64,000 nt of DNA from Squalus acanthias (GCA_030390025.1 CM059433.1:9052001-9116000), one strand, 5' to 3'; counted from the stretch's first letter, positions 1 to 61,530 are shown. Numbers and translations: made by a program. The notes: generated from the sequence alone by a model not told the origin.

Positions 1-148
1 TGGGAGAGGGGGAAACAACATCGACATTCTGCAATATGGGTAACTCAGGATTAACAACACCTCTAATGCTTTGTGACACAGCATTAACTTCCCAAAGGTA
101 AGAGTCAAGCAGAGTCGTCAAGTTTACTTAAATTGATATTTTGCCCTT

Positions 149-202
149 TGTTAGAATGTTTTAACATGATTTAAAAAGTCAATCTATTCCAGCATTCCAA
201 CA
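149..202. repeat. ~50-bp hairpin-forming dispersed repeat, copy 1
   Basis: tgttagaatgtttta..atgatttaaaaagtcaatctattccagcattcc, also present at 1705-1756. Confidence 0.8.
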
Positions 203-376
203 ATAATGCTATGATAAAATGGACTCAGGCACAATATTATGGGAAATAAAAGGTCCTCTAAAATAAACAAAATGTGTTAATAGCTGGACCAGGTGGAACG
301 TTTAATCTATCTTAAGTATTCTATTGAACAGTAAAGTTCCTCCAGGGCTCATGAATGAGATAGAATGGTAAATAAT

Positions 377-1118
377 GGCCCAGAAATTAAAGACTGAGTG
401 TTGACGCGGGGGTAAGGCCTTCCCCGCGATCTCTCACTCCGCGTTGGCTTTTTCAGATCCAGCTCGCACGAACTTGATGTTCTAGACATCAGCTGGGCAG
501 TGCTTGCGTATCCCACCGGCGTAGTGAATTCGTGCGAGCTGTGGGATCACGTGACTCAGTTAGAGCCAATGGCAGCACACCATCTTCCATTCATAAGTTT
601 CACATAAGTGCTGTGAAAGCTATGAATCTTACACACCCCCAAAATAACAGCTAAACCTCAATTAAATTAAAAAAAACCATCACATTAATAAAATAAGTAT
701 AGTTAAATAAATTAACCATTTTAAATAAAAAATTAAATTTTTGAAAAAATTTAAAATCTTTTAAAAAGTTATAAAAATAAACTTACCTGTCTTTAAAGTC
801 TCTAAAAAAGATATACCTGTTAAAAAAAATTCAAAATAATACTTAATTCACTACTTACCTTGTTAAAAGTGGGTCTTACTCCTCCTTTTTTCATTTCTAA
901 AATCTTCCGTCCTTACCTGCGCGTCCAAAGCACTAAGTGCACAGCGTGCGCGCAGCCTGTAGCGCTCACGCGGTGCACCGAGGAACCACCCCCTTTTCCA
1001 AAAACCAAGTGCCGGTTTTCAGCGCATGCGCAGTGCATGCAGAAAACCGGCAATTGGTGACAGAATACGCGAGAGTACACAGTGCGTACTCTCGCGTCGC
1101 GGGACTAATTTTTGGGCC
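377..1118. mobile_element. Non-autonomous PIF/Harbinger-like DNA transposon (MITE)
   Basis: TIR ggcccagaaatta / taatttttgggcc, 3-bp TSD AAT on both sides; inverted homologue of 43833-44595. Confidence 0.85.
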
Positions 1119-1692
1119 AATGGGATGTGTAAAACTGAATGAGAGGAAGTGATTGAAGATGCAAGATAGAAACAGGAAAATTACACCATCAAATGGAATT
1201 TTCCTAACATTCTAATGAAAGTCAGGAAAGTGTAGGTGAGAATAGTAAATTGATAGCTTTCTCTTGGAGTTTGTGTGTCCTTGCCTATGAACAATAATAA
1301 AACTGCATTTGATAGCCTGGCTGCTACCTGAGACATCGGGACCATGCAGGGGGAGGTAAGCAAAGATCTCCAGACACCCCCCCCCCAGCCCACGATTTGT
1401 TGATAAGACCACCGGATAGCCCAAGGATGGCTTGTATCAGATGTCACATGTGGCATGATAGAGATACGTGTGTGTGTGCGTGTGCGCGCAAGCAAATGTG
1501 AGGCAACTAGCATGTGGAAATGCATGGTGAATTTGTGAAGAACAGGGCTCAGACATGCTCAGTTAATTGACAACAGCACAACATTTTAAATCATTAAGGC
1601 ACTGACACATGCTCTAAACTGTAAACTCCAACATGAGCCAAGGTAAAGCCAGAAAGAAAGTTAATTGACTCAGTGATTGCTCATTCTGTGTC

Positions 1693-1764
1693 AAAAGGAG
1701 GGAATGTTGGAATGTTTTAGGATGATTTAAAAAAAGTCAATCTATTCCAGCATTCCTTTCTTTT
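1693..1764. repeat. ~50-bp hairpin-forming dispersed repeat, copy 2
   Basis: aaaaggagggaatgttggaat ... attccagcattcctttctttt forms a ~21-bp imperfect stem. Confidence 0.8.
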
Positions 1765-2259
1765 AACATTTTTAGTGGTAGAGCAAATGTGAGAGAAAGG
1801 GAAATCTTCATCTTGTCTCTATATCTGAAGAACAAGGGCAGAGAATGAAAACATCCAGGTCTAGGGAATGGGATAAACATTTGGCCGAAGCACTTACTGT
1901 ACTATAAACAAAACTTGTAGGACAGAGACAAAGGCTGAAAAGATTATAAAGTGGGTAAACACCTAAAAATGCACCATCAGCTAAACGTGCAATCGTATTA
2001 GGCAAGCACAGGCCAAAGTTGTATTATGGTCTAAGAACACAACCAGGTCCCCTTTAAAGCAGAGCGTTCAAGGGTCAGGAGCAATGCAGCTGCGCAGAGG
2101 GCCGAGGGGGCGGGAGCTGGTCACTCAGGACTTCTGTTGTTCTCTGACATCAGAGAGCATGCTCGGAGGTAGCCTGGGAACCAGGTTGTATTATTTGCAT
2201 GCCATTTAATATAAATGGAAGACCAAATCAGCCACTGTAATAAAGCTTGTTATTATAAA

Positions 2260-2445
2260 AAAACACTCGTGCGTGAATCATAAACGGAGTTATTGTCGCC
2301 AGACGAACAACCCTTTGTTGCGATGGAATCCGCTAACACCCTTACTGTTCTCAGTGTTGCTATTGGTGGATACATCCTAAATCCATCAAAAGCACTGCAG
2401 AGAACAGTCCTTCCCGTACCCTTCGGCCTGCAAAATAGAAGCAAC
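2260..2445. repeat. Inverted repeat, arm 1 (pairs with 5359-5554)
   Basis: Its reverse complement aligns to 5359-5554 with about a dozen substitutions and one ~12-nt indel. Confidence 0.95.
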
Positions 2446-2495
2446 TGGAATTTAGGGTGGGTGGCGTATCTTGAACAGCTGGCATTGTAGGACAG
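2346..2495 (-). CDS. Candidate unannotated KIDINS220 cassette exon (LSYNASCSRYATHPKFQLLLFCRPKGTGRTVLCSAFDGFRMYPPIATLRT)
   Basis: Acceptor cttctctgatcttgtgcag|, donor ACA|gtaagg; 150 nt, open in phase 0-0 like the neighbouring cassettes; no homology recognised. Confidence 0.35.
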
Positions 2496-2569
2496 CTGCA
2501 CAAGATCAGAGAAGCCCCCCCCCCCACCATTAGAGAGCAGCTAGTCCAGCTCAGAGCAGCCCTGCACTG

Positions 2570-2676
2570 TGGGAATGCAGGGCCAGGTTTGAGTAGCCAG
2601 CATTGCTGGGAACAGGACTAAGTTTGACCAGCCGGCATCTCTGGAAAGTGGGACCGGGTTTGAGCAGCCAGCGTCT
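2570..2676. repeat. Diverged tandem repeat, 3 units of ~35-37 bp
   Basis: tggRaa..ggRc..RgtttgaS.agccRgcRt recurs at ~2570, ~2607 and ~2642. Confidence 0.75.
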
Positions 2677-3330
2677 TGGTCCAATCGGAAGCAGCTTTTG
2701 TGGAAGAAATGCGGAAGGGAAAAGATTTAATATTGTTAAAACCAATTACAATTTCAAAATTTTGGCACGGATTTCAGCTCTTAAAAAAACATTTATCACG
2801 CCATTTATAATGTAGACTAAGGTTCTATACTCTGGAATTTTGTTTAATTTTAGAGGAAAGGAAAGAAAACTTTGTAGAACTTTCTCGACAGACTAAAATG
2901 TTGAAATGACTGCAGTATGTTACTGGAACATGGAATGTTTCATTACAAGTGGCTATTGATGCAGAAACATCATGTAAAAGTGAATTGGACAAGTATTTGA
3001 AAAGGAAGAATATGGGAAATAGGATTAGAGTAGATAGCTCAAGTTGAAGAGCATGACACACACAGGGATAGATGAACAGACACAGGGACTCGGGAGATGT
3101 ACGAGAGAGATTTTTGCTGAGGTCCTATTCACGTGTTGCAACAGCCCCCAGGATCTTATCTTCTTCGTGTATACGGCCATGCAGTAAGTGTTGGCAGGCT
3201 AAATGCTTTTCAAGCAGGAATCGCTACTTAGCACTCAGGAGTCAGGCTGGTGGTTAGGCTGCCAGAATGGCCTCAGCACCCTAAGTCAAGGAAAGGAAAT
3301 CCACGGTTTCCACATCTGATGACATATTTA

Positions 3331-4546
3331 GGACAAAAGCAAAATACTGCGGATGCTGGAAATCTGAAATAAAAACAGAAAATGCTGGAAATACTCAGCA
3401 GGTCAGGCAGCATCTGTGGAGAGAAACAGAGTTAACGGGCTGGATTTTGATACTGGGGCGGGTTGGGGTCGTGTCATCCACTTTTCGTGTTATCCACCCG
3501 ACTGCAATTGGATGTGGGAGATTGATGCAATTTTCACCTAATTGGGCAATTGAGTTCCAGCATGTGGGAACCCATGACCCAATTAGTGGTTTCAGTCTGA
3601 AAGTCGCCTCTGATGATGTCATCATTGCTGCTGCATTGAAGGTCTTCAGAGACTGCCTGGCCTTTGCTGAGAGGGGACCTGGATGCAAAATGAGCAGCAG
3701 CAGCCCTAAGTCTGCTCCCAGATATTTTTACACCGAGAGAGAGAGAGATCCAGCCAGCCAAATGTGCTCCCGCCAGGTTTCACAATCGTGGTTCAGAACA
3801 GGCGTGCTTCACGTAGAACAAGGGTTAAAATCACAAAGGCCTTTCAAAATGGCATTATAGGGCCAATTTAGTGCTGATCAAGGGCCTTAACAGCCTACCC
3901 CGTCTCTTATAGGCGGGACGGAGTCGGGACCAGCAGACACGATTTAATGAAAATTGCGTGGATGCGGGATGGAGGCGGACTTGTGCCCGCCCGCCAGTTT
4001 TTGCAATTTTAACCCCCCACACGCCTCCAAACCCGCCTCCACGGGTCAATGAAAATCCAGCCCAACGTTTCAGGTCGATGACCCTTCGTCAGAACTGGAA
4101 AAAGTTGGAGACGTAACAGATTTTAAGCAAGTGTAGGGGCAGGGAAAGGGGGAAGGGAGGAAAGAACAAAAGGGAAGGTCTGTGATAGGATGGAAGGCAG
4201 GAGAGATTGAGAGATGGTGCAAGGCAAAAGGAGATAGTAATGGGACAAGTTAAGAAACAAAAGATGGCTCTAGAGAAGTGTAAATGGCGATGGCAGAATG
4301 AACGACAGTTGCCATGTGGGAGAGAGGGGCAGAGGTTATGGTCTGAAATTGTTGAACTCTATGTTGAGTCCAGAAGGCTGTAAAGTGCCTAATCAAAAGG
4401 TGAGGTGCTGTTCCTCGAGCTTACGTTGAGCTTCATTGGAACAGTGCAAGAGGCCGATGAGGTCTGAGTGGGAGTGGAGCGGAGAATTAAAGTGACAGGC
4501 GACCGGAAGCTCGGGGTCACCCTTACGGACTGAACGGAGGTGTTCC
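3331..4546 (-). mobile_element. Penelope-like retroelement 3' fragment (GIY-YIG C-terminus plus pseudo-LTR), interrupted by a MITE
   Basis: Minus strand 4544-4343 reads EHLRSVRKGDPELPVACHFNS...EEQHL..LGTLQPSGLNIEF; the pLTR carries hammerhead core CTGACGA-stem-GAAAC. Confidence 0.85.
3437..4063. mobile_element. PIF/Harbinger-like MITE nested in the Penelope pLTR
   Basis: Perfect 12-bp TIR gggctggatttt / aaaatccagccc, TSD AAC; the uninterrupted site is seen in the pLTR copy near 51010-51030. Confidence 0.9.
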
Positions 4547-5358
4547 TGCTGTAAGCGTGCATGTGTGGACATCAGTCGAGTACAGCATCATGCTCAGCTG
4601 TAACACCTCTGCACAGCCCAATGGCTTAAAGACACCCACTGTCAATGCTCTCACGCAGCTAATGGCCTCTGCAGCAAGACACTATAGAGCAGTCAGTGTC
4701 CAAAGAACCAACAGCAAGAAGTCAACCTTTACCTTGTTTGTGTGTCATTCCCTGGAACAGCTTCTTCAGCTTAGACCTTAAAGCTTATCCATCTTCAATA
4801 TTGCATGTAGCCATTATATTCTGTGCTCACAAAAGCCTGCTGCTTCATTTAGATAAGGTTATGCACGTCTGTCATCAAACCCACAAATATCATCACTTTG
4901 TACATCACTTACAATGATCCATAGGGATTGAGATTGCGAAACAGCTCTGGCATCAAAGTTAAGAATGAACCAACGAGATGTTTTCAAACAGTGTGATAAT
5001 GTAATCAACAGAAGCCTCAATAAGCTGGAATTCAAAAATAATTAAATTTATTTCAAGGCTGACAGTCAATGACTGAATTGAAGTCAGAGTCTGAACTGAA
5101 TAAAAAGTTCTGAAGTATTTATTTAAACCTTTACGAAGTAACGCGCAAGGAGATTTGACTTTAGTATTTTTCCCTTAAAAGGCTGACAACATAGTTAACA
5201 GGCGTTGTGAAAAAGTTATACTCTCCGAAGAAAACCCTACATACCTGTTCAACAGGGTGAGGTAGGACCACATCATCATGTTGGTAACTTTGGAAACCTC
5301 AAATTCTTGAGATAATAGGGGATTTTCCGGTCCGAGGGCAATTTACATCCGAAAGGAG

Positions 5359-5554
5359 GTTGCTTCTATTTTGCAGGCCTAACGGTACGGGAAGGACTGT
5401 GCTCTGCAGTGCTTTTGGTGGATTCAGGATGTATCCACCAATAGCAACACTGAGAACAGTAAGGGTGTTAGCGGATTTCTTCGTGGTCACCGTCGCAACA
5501 AGGAGTTTAGTCTGGCGGCAATAATGCCGTTTATGATTCACGCACGAGTGTTTT
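5359..5554. repeat. Inverted repeat, arm 2 (pairs with 2260-2445)
   Basis: Direct alignment; also visible as the shared peptide SANTLTVLSVAIGGYILNP in ORFs 2293(+) and 5299(-). Confidence 0.95.
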
Positions 5555-6679
5555 GGGTTTTGCATTGACATAAATAGAAGTGTGAGATTTGGATTGGATT
5601 TGTGCAGCAAGCACACTAGTGGCAGGAACCGAAAACCGCATGTTATCATAATTTAAAGTAATGGGCACAATTAAAGGGGAGTGCCAAAATAGGGGGACAA
5701 CATTCTAAAAGCCATCGAAGCTTCAATTGCATCTCTATCCATTAGTAGCCTTGGGCAAGGCTGAACGGGATGGGAACCAACAAGAAACAGGCAAAAATGA
5801 ATCGAAAGGAAACCCCAAGGTGTAGGCACAAGTGTGCATCCAAGTGACTGAGCAGCCCAGTGCCTAGCCCTCTGCTTGATGGATGCTAAAGTGCAGATGA
5901 CGTTGCATGCCGTGATTGTGAGGAGGGTTGCCTTCTCGGCCAGCCCAAGGCACCATCCCCCAAGGCCAAGACTGCAGCATGTCTGCAAGGAGGTGAAGCC
6001 AAGTTTCAGGCTGCAGTTGACCATTACTGTCACTGCGCCAGCCCTTTGCTGCACCGTAGCTCCACGTGTCTGCCCCATTTGTGCGTGCAAATCTGGCAAG
6101 CTGATCAGAAAATCTTCACTCGTGTCTCAGTGTTCCTCCCTCTCCAACCCTCAACCTTGGGTGATGACCTACTCATTTGTATGTACAGGTTGAATGAAAG
6201 AGAGAAACTTCTTTTCCCTCCACACAACCTACACAGTAAACTCTCTTAATAATTGCCTTTGCTTTCAAGTCGTACAGACTACTTAAGTTATTAAAGTGAA
6301 TACAATGGAACCTCAATTAACCAACAAGATGGTAGAACCCCAACCCCAGCAGATACCAGAAACTGACAGATAACCAAGAGTCCCTAGGATACTATACTCT
6401 GCCGTTCTCTCTACCACTCTCCACCAGCTTGCCTCAGCCCTCACCACCAGCACTTTACTGTATTACATTTACTGGAAAGACCTATTATTTGATAACTTCC
6501 CCAAGCAATCCAGCCACCAAGCCCACCACAGAACTGATAGAGCCAGCCAACAATGCTCCTTGTGATGCCAACCATGGTCTCGCAGCTACAGAGACAAGTA
6601 TTATAGGCATTAATGTGCTCATCTCCACCTGTCCCACTGGCAACCTGCACGGCATTGATCTCAGCAGATCAGTAAAGGC

Positions 6680-7977: not shown

Positions 7978-8034
7978 CAGTGAGGTGTCTGAGGGGGAAG
8001 GAAGCCCCTCATCAGCAGCCTCCGCGATCACCTC
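7978..8034 (-). CDS. KIDINS220: KIDINS220 cassette exon (EVIAEAADEGLPSPSDTSL)
   Basis: Resembles mammalian EVIKEDAAEGLSSPTDSSR; acceptor ttcttgtcag|, donor |gtaatg; 57 nt, phase 0-0. Confidence 0.9.
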
Positions 8035-9116
8035 CTGACAAGAACAAAAATCACAATTTTGGGTAACAATACAAATACATCAGAGAGCAAATAATGTACA
8101 CCTTGAACTACTGTAAATCTCTTGTTAACATTACATGCAGAGTGGCGAACTGATTTTTTTTTCTGTTTCATGTAACCATTGTTTTTTTTGTGTAACAACT
8201 TTTTAAAAAACATTTATTTAACTTGAACTAAATTAAATAGTACAAACTATTCTGCAATTATTAAACCTCTTAAATTCACAGACTGATCACCACAAATGGA
8301 TGAAAATCCAAAATACCACATCAAAATATGAAGTGGTCAAAGATGACAATGCGGTGAGTCATACAGCCAGTCTGTTTTAGTTGCTATCTTAGTAATTTAA
8401 AATTAATTTTTGTTCCTGATCATTGAAAATGAAAGTTTGGCAGCAGTCCCATGCCACTTGACTTTTCCCCATTCGATTTATATATATTCTATGGCAATTT
8501 ATGTTACTGCTGTTTCATAGAGAATAATAGCTGCCCACGATCAACTGCAAAAAAAAATGTATGCACTCCAAAATAGTTAGTTTACAATTGCTACAGCCAA
8601 AGGGGTATACAAAACCTCAAATCAAAAAGTTCAGCAATTCACCACTGATCATCCAATACAGGTTTTTAACTAACACAATTCAGGTATTCGGAGCAAGAAA
8701 CACAAAGTTTAAAAAAAAACAACAGCCAGCGCTAGGTTAATATGAACAAAGGCGAAGAGTTTGGAATGAAACAAAAAAAGGAGGGAACAACTTTAGCAGA
8801 ATGTGAAAATAAAAAAATCCGTCAGGATTCAGAAAAATAACAAATAACTACTTGTAAAATTAAAATGGGGAGGGGGATACCCCGAAGAAGCAAAACAATG
8901 TTGTATTGTAAAGATACTATTTTGGTGAAAATGTATGGAGAATCGAAGCAGTATTTTTGAAATTGATACTTCATTAATATTTAGTACCAACATTTTATAA
9001 ATCTGTGGTATACCTAGCAGAAGAAAAGTTTCACAATTATACTTAAATGATTTACAAAATATATTCTACATTTTAGTACTACGAAATTCACCCTTTTTTG
9101 CTTTTGCAATACTTAC

Positions 9117-9233
9117 TAGATGACTGTTCTGTTCCCTTGAGAAAGTGGTTTTAGTTGATGAACGTGAGATGGGATGCTGCAAACTGCCTAAGTATTGCCT
9201 TGGCAGGTAACAAATATGAGGGGCAAAATATGG
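9117..9233 (-). CDS. KIDINS220: KIDINS220 cassette exon (PYFAPHICYLPRQYLGSLQHPISRSSTKTTFSREQNSHL)
   Basis: Hand translation resembles mammalian PFFAPYLYTPRYYPGGSQHLISRPSVKTSLPRDQNNGL; acceptor tttccatag|, donor |gtaagt; 117 nt, phase 0-0. Confidence 0.9.
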
Positions 9234-9559
9234 CTATGGAAAAGGAACAGGTGAAAAAAAAAAACAATTTAGGAAAATCCAAATGAAGTCACAAAGAAAA
9301 TAAATACACATAACATGTGACATGACATAGCTAATGTTCCAATTGTAGAATATGTTTACTTCCCAAATCCTGATTCACAATGGATTAAACTTAAAGTAAG
9401 CACTATAAAACAAAGGTAACACATGGTTATAAATTAAATGCGAGGGAAATGACAAATATGAGGATGTTGCAGTGTCAACATACAGAATTTTTTTTTATAT
9501 AAAAGCCTATAGTCACTTTGTAGCTAGTACAATAAAATGATAGATTTTAGTTTACTTAC

Positions 9560-9783
9560 CCGGTTGTAAAATGGATGCTGTTGTCCCACCATGCCACTAT
9601 AATAGTTGCTAGGATGTTGTGGTGACATTACATTACCATTGAATGAAGTTGAGGAGGAGCAGACTGATGGTGCCTGGCTGAACACAGACGCAGCCCGAGG
9701 TGGAGCTTCCTGCAAAGGTAGTGAAGGATAAGGAATTCCTGTGATATTCACAGTGGACATCTGCTCCCTGGCAGCTCGGATAT
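9560..9783 (-). CDS. KIDINS220: KIDINS220 coding exon (DIRAAREQ...proline-rich...QHPFYNR)
   Basis: Within ORF 9524..9820; acceptor ctgcag|AT, donor CGG|gtaagt; 224 nt, phase 1-0. Confidence 0.95.
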
Positions 9784-53210: not shown

Positions 53211-56200
53211 AACATAGAAACATAGAAGATAGGAGCAGGAGTAGGCCATTCGACCCCTCGAGCCTGCTCCGCCATTCGATGAGATCATGGCTGATCATCC
53301 AAACTCAGTACCCTGTACCTGCCTTCTCCCCATATCCCTTGATACCTTTAGCTTTAAGAAATATATCTAACTCATTCTTGAATATATTTCATGACTTGGC
53401 CTCAACTACCTTCTGTGGTAGAGAATTCCACAGGTTCACCACTCTCTGGGTGAAGAAATTCTTCCTCATTTCTGTCCTAAATGGCTTACCCCTTATCCTT
53501 AGATTATGACCCCTGGTTCTGGACTCTCCGACCATCGGGAACATTCTTCCTGCATCTAGTTTGTCCAGACCTGTCAGAATTTTATATGTTTCGATGAGAT
53601 CCCCTCTCATTCTTCTATACTCCAGCGAGTATAAGCCCAATCGACCCAATCTCTCCTCATATGTCATTCCTGCCATCCCAGGTATCAGCCTTGTGAATCT
53701 TCGCTGAACTCCTTCCATGGCAAGAACATCCTTCCTCAGATAAGGCGACCAAAACTGCACACAGTACTCAAGGTGTGGTCTCACCAAGGCCCTGTACAAC
53801 TGCAGCAGGACATCCCTGTTCCTATACTCAAACCCTTTCGCTATGAAGGCCAACATACCATTTGCTCACCTGCATGCTTACCTTCAGCGACTGGTGCACA
53901 AGGACACCCAGGTCTCGTTGCACTTCCCCTTCTCCCAATCTATTGCCATTCAGATAATAGTCTGCCTTTCTGTTTTAGTCACCAAAGTGGATAACCTCGC
54001 ATTTATCCACGTTATATTGCATCTGCCATGCTTCTGCCCACTCACCCAACCTGTCCAAATCATCCTGGAGTTTCTCAGTATCCTCCTCGGAGCACACACG
54101 CCCACCCAGCTTTGTCTCATCTGCAAACTTGGAGATATTACATTTAGTTCCCTTATCTAGATCATTAATGTATATTGTGAATACTGGGGTCCAAGGACCG
54201 AACCCTGCGGTACCCAACTAGTCACTGCCTGCCACTCGGAAAAAGACCCATTAATTCCTACTCTCTGCTTTCTGTCCGCCAACCAGTTCTCTATCCAAGT
54301 CAATACCTTGCCCCCAATCCCATGTGCCTTAACTGTATACGCTAATCTCTTATGCGGGACCTTATCGAAAGCCTTTTGAAAGTCCAAATACACCACATCT
54401 ACTGGTTCTCCCTTATCTATTTTCCCAGTTACATCCTCAAAAAATTCCAGTAGATTAGTCAAGCACGATTTACCTTTTGTAAATCCATGTTGACTTTGTC
54501 CGATCCTGTCACTGTTTTTCAAGTGTTCAGCTATTACATCCTTTATAATGGACTCTAGCATTTTCCCCACTACCGATGTCAGGCTTACCGGTCTGTAATT
54601 CCCCGCTTTCTCTCTACCACCCTTTTTGAATAGCGGGGTAACATTAGCTACCCTCCAATCAATGGGTACAGTTCCAGATTCCATCGAATGTTGGAAGATG
54701 ATCAGCAATGCATCTACTTTTTCGAGGGCCACTTCCTTAAGTACCCTAGGATGTAGATTATCAGGCCCTGGAGATTTATCGGCCTTCAATCCCGTCAATT
54801 TCCCTAACAATACTGATTTCTTTCAGTTCCTCCCTTTCATCAGACCCTATGTTCTCCAACATCTCTGGGAGGTTATTTGTGTCCTCCTTTGTGAAGACAG
54901 AACCAAAATATGCATTTAATTGGTCTGCCATTTCTTTGTTCCCCATTATAACTTCCCCCGCTTCTGACTGCAAGGGACCTACACTTGATTTCACTAATAT
55001 TTTTCTCTTCACATATCTATAAAAGCTCTTAGTCAGTTTTTATGTTCCCTGCAAGCTTACTTTCATATTCTATTTTCCCCTTCTTAATTAATTCCTTTGT
55101 CCTCCTTTGTTGAATCCTAAACTGCTCCCAATCCTCAGGGTTACCACTTTTTCTGGCCAATTTATATGCCCTCTCCTTGGATCTTATGCTATCCCTAATT
55201 TCCCTTGTTAGCCATGGTTGAGTCACCCTTTTTGTTTTATTCTTATGCCACACTGGGATGAACAAATTCTGTAGTTCATCCATGCAGTCTTTGAATGTTT
55301 GCCATTGCCTATCCACCGTCAACCCTTTGAGTGACATTCCCCAATCAATCCTACCCAATTCGCGCCTCATACCATCGTAGTTTCCTTTATTTAAATTCAG
55401 GACCCTAGTCTCTGATTCAACTACTTCACTCTCCATCCTAATGAAGAATTCTATCATATTATGATCACTCTGACCCAAGGGGCCTCGTACAACAAGATTG
55501 CTAATTAATCCTTTCTCGTTACATAATACCCAGTCTAAGATGGCCTGATCTCTGGTTGGTTCCTCGACATATTGTTCCAGAAAACCATCCCGTAAACATT
55601 CTAGGAATTCCTCCTCCACAGTATTTTTACTAATTTGGTTAGCCCAATCTATATGTAAATTAAAGTCACCCATGATGACTGCTGTGCCCTTACTGCATGC
55701 TTCTCTAATTTCCCTTTTAATGCCGTCCCCAACCTCCGTATTACTGTTTGGAGGTCTATATACCACTCCCACTAACGTTTTCTGCCCCTTGGTATTTCTC
55801 AGTTCTACCCATACAGATTCCGCATCATCAGAGCTAATATCCTTCCTTTCAATTGTGTTAATCCCCTCTTTAACCAGCAATGCTACCCCACCTCCCTTTC
55901 TTTTTTGCCTATCTTTCCTAAATATTGAATACCCCTGGATGTGGAGTTCCCAGCCTTGGCCACCCTGGAGCCATGTTTCTGTAATCCCAATCAAATCGTA
56001 TTCATTTACGTCTATTTGCGCAGCTAATTCATCCACCTTGTTCCGAATGCTCCTTGCATTAAGACACAAAGCCTTCAGGCTTGTTTTTTTAATGCTCTCA
56101 GACCTATATGAATTATTATTTACTGTGACCATGTTTGATTTAAACCAATGAGTTCTTTGCCTTCTACTTTTGTTTTTCTCCTTCCTGTCTTTTGCTTTTA

Positions 56201-60420: not shown

Positions 60421-61314
60421 ATGCAGAAAATTGTGCAAACGCCATATAGTTTTTTTCTATAATCTTTACTTCATTCCAAAGCGACGACTGGACTTCATGT
60501 AGCAAGCAGGAATAGCACCCACCTATGTACCAACATCATATGGTGAAGTCTTACAGATTATCCCACTGTGCAAGAAATAAATTGTGACCTTTTAAACTCT
60601 TGTGTACAGAACCAATCTTTGTTTTCTAAGTATATGTGCCATCAGCACCTTGTGATTTTCTTGTGTGTAAATTATTTTACTTGTAAATGAATATTAGTTT
60701 TAGGCTGAACGTAATGTGTGACATTATGGTATTTACTGCCTTTTGGAATAGACAAGAGAGCATGCTGAGCATCCCACTACCTTGTCTCCAGTGCTTTACA
60801 CCGTAATTAAAGTAGAACAGTTAGTCCTGTGGCATGCTATCCTATTCACAGGATGCCTAAAGACACAGGTTTTTGTCCAAACAAGTCTTTTTGCGATGAA
60901 TTGTTAAAAAAAAAATTGGAAGAAAGCTCAAATCACACAATTATGTCGAGAAACTAACCAATTTTGCATCATTGCTGGTAGGTGTAGCAATATTAGAACA
61001 GACTTATCAGTAAGTGTTTTTTTTTAAACTTACTTCTGTAATTTCCTTGCTCTTGGGGGCTTACTTGTTTCAAGTGTTATAATATTTGTACTCAAATTCT
61101 CATATTCTTTATGTTGCAGGATACCATAGTTTCATCTCTGATATTATTAAACAAGCCATATATCACATGGCTTAAATGTCCTCAACTCAAATTAAATATC
61201 TTAACCTCATCACCACCACCGCCTCCTCCCCCACCCCACCCCCGAGTACTCGTACCCTTGGTACCAATGAAAGAGGTCTACTGCATTCAGAACTCCTCTG
61301 GATACTAGGACAAC

Positions 61315-61530
61315 AGTGAGAAGTCGCACAACACCAGGTTATAGTCCAACAGTTTTATTTGAAATCACAAGCTTTCGGAGCTGCTGCTCCTTCGTCAGGT
61401 GAAGTGAAGGACTTCAGCAGCTCCGAAAGCTTGTGATTTCAAATAAAACTGTTGGACTATAACCTGGTGTTGTGCGACTTCTCACTTTTGTCCACCCCAG
61501 TCCAACACCGGCATCTCCGCATCATGGCTC
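61315..61530. mobile_element. Fold-back Penelope-derived mini-element with hammerhead (second copy)
   Basis: Palindrome 61315-61486 plus the same tail as copy 1; 10-bp TSD ctaggacaac; intact hammerhead on the minus strand. Confidence 0.85.

Follow-up and report, generated by a model that had tools for sequence, protein, structure and literature searches.

Two inverted arms in an intron of KIDINS220 (arm A and arm B in Table 1) probably represent a transposon junction and its repair-made inverted copy; the duplex that they would form in RNA appears incidental, is likely edited and likely has no selected role in splicing. In the history that we propose, an LTR would have inserted beside an old palindromic repeat in the intron, creating the junction; template-switching DNA repair would then have copied this junction, reversed, into another old repeat 2.9 kb away; and the two copies would pair in the KIDINS220 pre-mRNA, with A-to-I editing as a by-product. 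The repair mechanism, the pairing in vivo, the editing and the neutrality are what we infer from the observations below.

Within the window, by which we mean the whole 64-kb stretch of DNA that was analysed, the arms are reverse complements with 86.9% identity over 198 columns (E 3e-67 in a within-window search), separated by 2,913 nt. This agrees with the first-pass annotation, made from the sequence by itself, which had described arms of about 190 nt, 2.9 kb apart, without another copy in the window; no third full arm copy was found in the 64 kb. In a global alignment the arms differ by 12 substitutions in 184 columns and by two indels (2 and 12 nt), and 5 of the 12 substitutions are transversions, which break a pair on either strand. 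The longest perfect run between the arms, 52 nt, contains the splice donor at 2346 (p=0.12), and the inner part has diverged less than the LTR part (5/107 versus 7/77 positions; p=0.24); neither is significant, both lying within chance, and both were nevertheless counted against our preferred explanation. Across the whole gene (124 kb) we obtained 90 inverted alignments, with 5, the arm pair included, equally strong or stronger within 10 kb; only 2 inverted pairs, one of them the arm pair, reach at least 100 nt and 80% identity at less than 5 kb distance.

Table 1. Coordinates of the features discussed, numbered from the first nucleotide of the window.
Feature	Position	Strand	Remarks
Left TSD of solo LTR, CCCTT	144..148	+	
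Solo LTR, long form, antisense to KIDINS220	149..2338	+	TGTTAG start, CTAACA end
Right TSD of solo LTR, CCCTT	2339..2343	+	overlaps cryptic donor positions +3 to +7
Arm A, template	2260..2445	.	last 79 nt of LTR + 107 nt flank
Old palindromic interspersed repeat (MITE-like)	2345..2504	+	profile from 5 other copies, E 7e-17
Candidate 150-nt exon, phase-0 open, weak acceptor, middling donor	2346..2495	-	wholly inside old repeat
82-nt variant from stronger acceptor, would-be poison exon	2346..2427	-	frameshift, two phase-0 stops
Left piece of older dispersed repeat interrupted by arm B	5300..5358	+	
Arm B, reversed 196-nt copy of LTR/flank junction	5359..5554	.	no TSD
Right piece of older dispersed repeat interrupted by arm B	5555..6070	+	323 candidates, about 70% identity
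KIDINS220 57-nt alternative exon (EVIAEAADEG...)	7978..8034	-	protein mapping
KIDINS220 117-nt alternative exon (PYFAPHIC...)	9117..9233	-	protein mapping
KIDINS220 exon ending ...HPFYNR, precedes alternative cluster	9560..9783	-	protein mapping

No transposable element had been recognised in the arms at first. This view fails: each arm consists of the 3' end of an LTR family, over its outer 79-90 nt, and of an old palindromic repeat further in. The LTR family is dispersed, with 201 and 1,950 candidates in two genome searches; in the former, made with arm A, 38 of the 40 candidates scored were other loci that match the outer 66-90 nt only. The expectation of single-copy arms therefore holds for the LTR/palindromic-repeat junction, which is unique, but not for the outer and inner parts, each of which recurs at other loci. 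At the LTR loci, similarity to the window extends leftwards as far as about 1705 and is seen again over 1119-1584 and 193-378; all of these loci end at ...CTAACA, 2338. The element to which arm A belongs is a solo LTR with TG...CA ends and short inverted termini, which carries TATAAA at 2210 and AATAAA at 2239 and is interrupted by a younger insertion of ~740 nt at about 378-1119. In a survey of target-site duplications (TSDs), 20 LTR copies with the 3' end motif were found, 11 of which had the start motif in reach, and 7 of these 11 are flanked by a 5-bp TSD (6 exact, 1 with one mismatch); among the remainder, 2 run into primer-site-like sequence and 2 hit an internal start-like motif. Past the LTR end, copies L006, L012 and L020 continue with primer-site-like sequence starting in TGGC, while L117 and L118 each comprise two LTR pieces. 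By eye, no gag/pol-like ORF of at least 130 aa was recognised in three LTR copies.

The palindromic repeat beyond the LTR recurs in 6 copies elsewhere, spread over 4 other contigs; these copies are 65-80% alike and, in three cases, self-complementary over 150-230 nt. The left half of the repeat beyond the LTR was not found (best E 2.6), and its central hairpin corresponds to 2344-2408. No Rfam family reached its gathering score in the window, the best E around the arms being about 2; since no family was found and the hairpin is the centre of the repeat, we dropped its reading as a pre-miRNA or snoRNA. According to the five-copy profile, by which the continuation of the repeat was judged (pairwise single-copy tests being weak), the match runs past 2445 in arm A and stops at 5394 in arm B.

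Arm A is thus placed differently from arm B: it is continuous with repeats on both sides, whereas arm B splits a third repeat, and as read from these neighbours the direction of copying is from A to B. Arm B combines the end of the LTR with its TSD and the adjoining flank and is therefore not an independent insertion of either repeat, and, as the first-pass annotation had stated, no TSD flanks it. The 59 nt to its left align directly upstream of the right repeat piece in 5 of the 15 testable copies of the interrupted repeat (p<=0.03 each versus 300 shuffles; another 2 of the 17 copies fell short of the length needed). Rejoining failed in the 10 others of this old, diverged repeat, which we also counted against our preferred explanation. 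By itself, the left flank gave E 0.94 with the repeat profile and no match in a short-target run, and the claim of a continuous site rests on the copy-by-copy flank test. The gap between the rejoined flanks is 3-12 nt in the repeat copies, and 2-6 nt are unaligned at arm B. Since its flanks rejoin in 5 of the repeat copies, arm B has split a continuous site with the loss of few bases and without a TSD, which argues against both transposon ends and an inversion scar. At the junction, examined for microhomology as it now stands, arm B ends in GTGTTTT next to GGGTTTT. Arm B fits an inverted templated insertion, with an order of events in which the old repeats came first, followed by the LTR, the copy and lastly decay. 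Templated insertions of the MMB-TI / MMBIR type, as described in PMC8421209, are germline variants that, like arm B, form inverted copies of a nearby template without TSD; the templates in that study lay within 100 bp and the inserts were of read length, whereas arm B comprises 196 nt from 2.9 kb away.

Compared with 26 family copies over the LTR part, arm B departs at 5 columns and by one 2-nt gap, and arm A at 1 column and by a 12-nt gap, the missing segment being present in both the family and arm B; 1 column is split 13:13. By this comparison both arms have decayed independently. In DNA of a relative that differs from the window by about 4% (run X6), contigs cross 2338/2339, 5358/5359 and 5554/5555, and the arrangement therefore predates that split. 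That the pair is old and that both arms persist in the relative, not deleted, was likewise counted against our preferred explanation. The X6 contig at 2306-2841, which is wider than the candidate exon, differs from the window at 39 of 536 letters (7.3%) plus 11 gap letters, versus 236 of 5,781 (4.1%) in six other pieces (p=0.001), a background that leaves out the contig over the 9560-9783 exon; over a real exon, 9 of 363 letters differ. Conservation in relatives, which had been named as a check, was thus not seen in this one relative, in which 2306-2841 gives no sign of purifying selection as judged from these counts.

The host gene is KIDINS220, transcribed from the minus strand, with a window peptide matching shark KIDINS220 at 96-97% identity. 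Shark proteins mapped to the DNA place the arms among alternative phase-0 exons, so that both the gene and the exon cluster had been named correctly. The 57-nt exon is the nearest real exon upstream of the arms in the pre-mRNA; a 15-nt micro-exon (LKLKQ), annotated in several species, and the next constant exon are situated outside the window, ~4 kb and ~6.6 kb to its left, respectively. Phase-0 exons of 39, 19 and 5 aa are optional in shark isoforms. In mouse and human, the alternative region lies between exons 24 and 29/30, as reported in PMC4470590, and is the same gene region as that of the candidate exon; the known alternative exons are conserved across species, whereas the candidate is repeat-derived and, as shown next, absent from the proteins compared.

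The 150-nt stretch is indeed open in phase 0 and runs from an AG to GTAAGG, as the first-pass annotation had claimed, and the profile match of the palindromic repeat spans all of it. A GTAAG donor at the matching place is absent from all 6 other copies of the repeat. The 50-aa peptide of the candidate exon occurs in 0 of 153 KIDINS220 proteins (47 of them from cartilaginous fishes), the best match being 5 residues at E 19, and has no Pfam match. We scored splice sites with matrices built on 23 acceptors and 22 donors of KIDINS220 itself, which makes them rough: the acceptor at 2495 is weaker than 18 of the 23 real acceptors, that at 2427 outscores 11 of them, and the donor at 2346 outscores 10 of the 22 real donors. 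An in-frame pseudo-exon filter was passed by 4 unannotated donor sites in 122.6 kb, 2346 included. The rarity of such donors, together with that of the inverted pair, was a further point counted against our preferred explanation. Judged by these features, the 150-nt candidate is likely a fair cryptic exon. A second acceptor had been proposed at 2427; its AG is present, but the resulting unit of 82 nt is not a multiple of 3 and contains TGA and TAG in phase 0. Editing of the TGA had been noted to give Trp. With the second stop and the frameshift remaining, one TGA-to-TGG edit rescues nothing.

Among sequencing runs X9-X14, whose RNA status was guessed, X10 and X11 contain the spliced joint 9559-8033, which skips the 9117-9233 exon, and therefore hold mRNA. 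Among the 15 joints listed from contigs of three runs, with 455 more outside this list, none falls at 2495, 2427 or 2346; X9 and X10 are without coverage at 2489 or 2337, and X9 has a low depth (1.4) in the bin that holds the 82-nt unit. In X11, from a distant relative, one contig crosses 2495 unspliced, and an X11 contig terminates at 2418, close to a putative donor (2420, score 6.9); as other X11 contigs also carry 40-55 loose letters, this end was left unused. No report of the repeat or of the candidate exon came up in the article texts searched.

In a predicted fold of 3.6 kb of pre-mRNA, 173 of the 186 bases of arm A pair with arm B, the arm duplex being predicted at about -311 kcal/mol. 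The long duplex over the 2346 donor and the 2427 acceptor that had been postulated is borne out to this extent, with both sites buried in the predicted fold. Back-splicing of the candidate exon, also suggested earlier, is unlikely because the donor would lie in the stem and not in a loop. Given that both sites are buried, we considered whether arm B, although accidental, might have been retained because the duplex silences the transposon-derived 82-nt poison exon, whose inclusion would cause a frameshift and decay. The strength of both sites relative to real ones, a copy that covers exactly the 82-nt unit and the presence of both arms in the relative would fit such a silencer. However, the donor GT is paired, and A2386 faces C2366, in a local hairpin of arm A that does not require arm B; the arm A region is not conserved in the relative; and pair-breaking changes have accumulated in both arms. 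We therefore regard this reading as improbable, and there is similarly little chance that a one-step, repair-born antisense copy has been kept as an ADAR-edited duplex that blocks the 82-nt (or 150-nt) exon from the mRNA. Nor did the article texts searched contain a report of a cryptic exon silenced by an antisense copy made locally.

As for editing, the minus-strand RNA would have an A of arm A facing a C of arm B at 2296, 2314, 2324 and 2386, the four mismatches claimed by the first-pass annotation. The first three are in the LTR part, outside the exon, leaving 2386 as the only one within it, and a fifth A-C mismatch has its A in arm B. Of the 7 transitions in total, 5 lead to an A-C mismatch in minus-strand RNA, an excess that is within chance (p=0.23). 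Of the ADAR proposal, editing of the duplex is plausible, with a hint from one RNA contig; the A-C bias is not significant. This contig, from run X10 and lying over arm B (5231-5459), differs from the window at 12 of 229 letters where about 1 is expected; in six other X10 pieces, a background that leaves out piece 3 (4334-4516, a high-copy repeat), 18 of 4,452 letters differ (0.4%; binomial p 3e-10). An assembly chimera cannot have added these differences, because the 31-mers shared by the arms occur only where the arms are identical. The one difference among the 12 whose kind was seen, 5317 A>G, is common to the DNA of the relative. The excess over the DNA of the window hints at hyper-editing; gene conversion or a paralogous contig is a possible source as well. 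Over the whole stretch, the excess of A>G/T>C over the DNA run is not significant (p=0.21).

In animals, duplexes formed by repeats are commonly hyper-edited, mostly in non-coding sequence, according to PMC5625713. The Xenopus Harbinger palindromic repeats described there are self-folding targets of hyper-editing, and the inner arms likewise contain a self-folding repeat centre, whereas the shark repeat is unnamed and, with copies 65-80% identical, much older. The arms also resemble the ADAR-edited inverted Alu pairs treated in PMC526178 and PMC2533698, in that one intron holds both repeats, cryptic splice sites lie in the duplex and A-C mismatches stem from ordinary transitions. They differ from these in their origin, by local copying of an LTR/MITE junction instead of two SINE insertions; in their spacing, 2.9 kb being beyond the range of roughly 2 kb given for efficient pairing of Alu pairs; and in that the Alu pairs affect flanking or Alu-derived exons (PMC526178, PMC2533698), whereas an effect of the arms on splicing would be hypothetical.

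A transcript of the opposite strand would turn the A-C mismatches into G-U pairs, as the first-pass annotation had correctly cautioned. The solo LTR might drive such a plus-strand antisense RNA, whose long hairpin would be subject to editing or dicing and might affect KIDINS220. The LTR points towards the arms, with its TATAAA upstream of them in that direction, and for the stretch as a whole the plus-strand differences listed for X10 comprise 27 A>G versus 16 G>A. The AATAAA, on the other hand, could terminate the RNA at the start of arm A, and the change counts, which come from strandless contigs and include repeats from elsewhere, are not significant. We consider this origin of an active hairpin quite improbable.

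The first-pass annotation had favoured yet another role, a regulated 150-nt in-frame cassette exon, with the duplex and ADAR switching its inclusion and an Asp-to-Gly recoding. The open frame, the 0-0 phase, the position inside the phase-0 alternative cluster, the A-C mismatch at A2386 and the possible editing signal over arm B would agree with it. Against this, even a micro-exon of 15 nt is annotated in several species while the candidate peptide is missing from every protein compared; the peptide lacks a Pfam match, its acceptor falls below most real ones (18/23), the exon lies wholly within an old repeat and diverges faster than the intron in the relative, one RNA contig passes the acceptor unspliced, and the A-C bias is within chance. 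A new cassette exon is not supported, and we deem this reading very unlikely. Recoding sites of the GRIA2 Q/R type are found in conserved coding exons, with conserved imperfect duplexes between the exon and its intronic complement. The arms are alike in that an intronic complement pairs with the end of a putative exon and its donor, whereas the candidate stretch was tested for conservation and none was found. With transposon-derived arms, a templated arm B and no conservation, a selected duplex acting as a splicing switch is unsupported.

Two further readings concern the origin of the arms instead of their function. A staggered-break inversion is expected to leave inverted duplications on either side of the segment concerned, and the arms do flank 2446-5358 in this manner; however, the palindromic repeat continues across 2445/2446 and not across 5359/5358, and both flanks of arm B are parts of a single repeat with a shared orientation, which makes an inversion highly unlikely. 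It is next to untenable that the arms are the terminal inverted repeats of a 3.3-kb DNA transposon, a reading that two inverted arms around 2.9 kb might suggest and that is largely refuted: there is no TSD outside the arms and no break in arm A at 2260, which the LTR runs straight through; the full arm was found at no other locus, so that the high-copy terminal repeats named earlier as a refuting observation did not appear; and no other copy of the interior was found at 2400-2800 and 4950-5358, in a search that can miss old copies.

As a transposon junction with its probable repair-made copy, the arm pair is most likely of minor consequence, a clean and datable case of a templated inverted insertion, and it illustrates how double-stranded RNA open to editing may arise from repeat debris in the long introns of sharks. 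Were arm B to repress the cryptic exon, it would represent a one-step route from a repair error to a splice silencer. Such a route, if true, would differ from the two-insertion route of Alu pairs, and it would concern a gene with isoforms under regulation in brain and heart.

KIDINS220 also carries a further small exon to the left of the window, the LKLKQ micro-exon, which is optional in several isoforms from sharks and rays (see table). Within the window, two sequencing runs contained an RNA joint, 8033-9559, in which the 57-nt exon of this gene is included and the 117-nt exon is skipped, a combination that was absent from the 47 cartilaginous-fish proteins examined.

Additional features in and near the window (window numbering unless a locus is named)
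Feature	Position	Strand	Description
KIDINS220 micro-exon LKLKQ	L048:5941-5955 (genomic locus; ~4 kb left of window)	minus	15 nt; strong splice sites
High-copy repeat	3333-4546		interrupted by 630-nt insertion
Near-perfect palindrome	61308-61493		arms 79 nt, 99% complementary; gap 28 nt

The two pieces of the high-copy repeat, 3333-3437 and 4064-4546, are contiguous in other copies, and this repeat dominated the read depth in all four runs. The LTR family represented by the solo copy at 149-2338 occurs in a short (~570–700 nt) and a long (~1,280–1,490 nt) form, the latter carrying a second, internal start-like motif (at 1705 in the window copy). As for the old palindromic repeat at 2345-2504, one copy lies within each of two ~2 kb inverted duplicates (genomic loci L033 and L034, on G000:C4), which are 95–98% identical and ~145 kb apart. 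The palindrome at 61308-61493 is a young palindromic repeat and a likely editing target.

We also observed an inverted pair of 2.8-kb LINE (CR1-like) copies, at 53214-56016 and from 63164 past the window's right end to 65959 (in window numbering), which are 89% identical, spaced 7.1 kb apart and enclose two constant KIDINS220 exons (~62163-61968 and ~58216-58051). This pair is a candidate for promoting back-splicing or exon skipping, and a far stronger one than the arms at 2260-2445 and 5359-5554.
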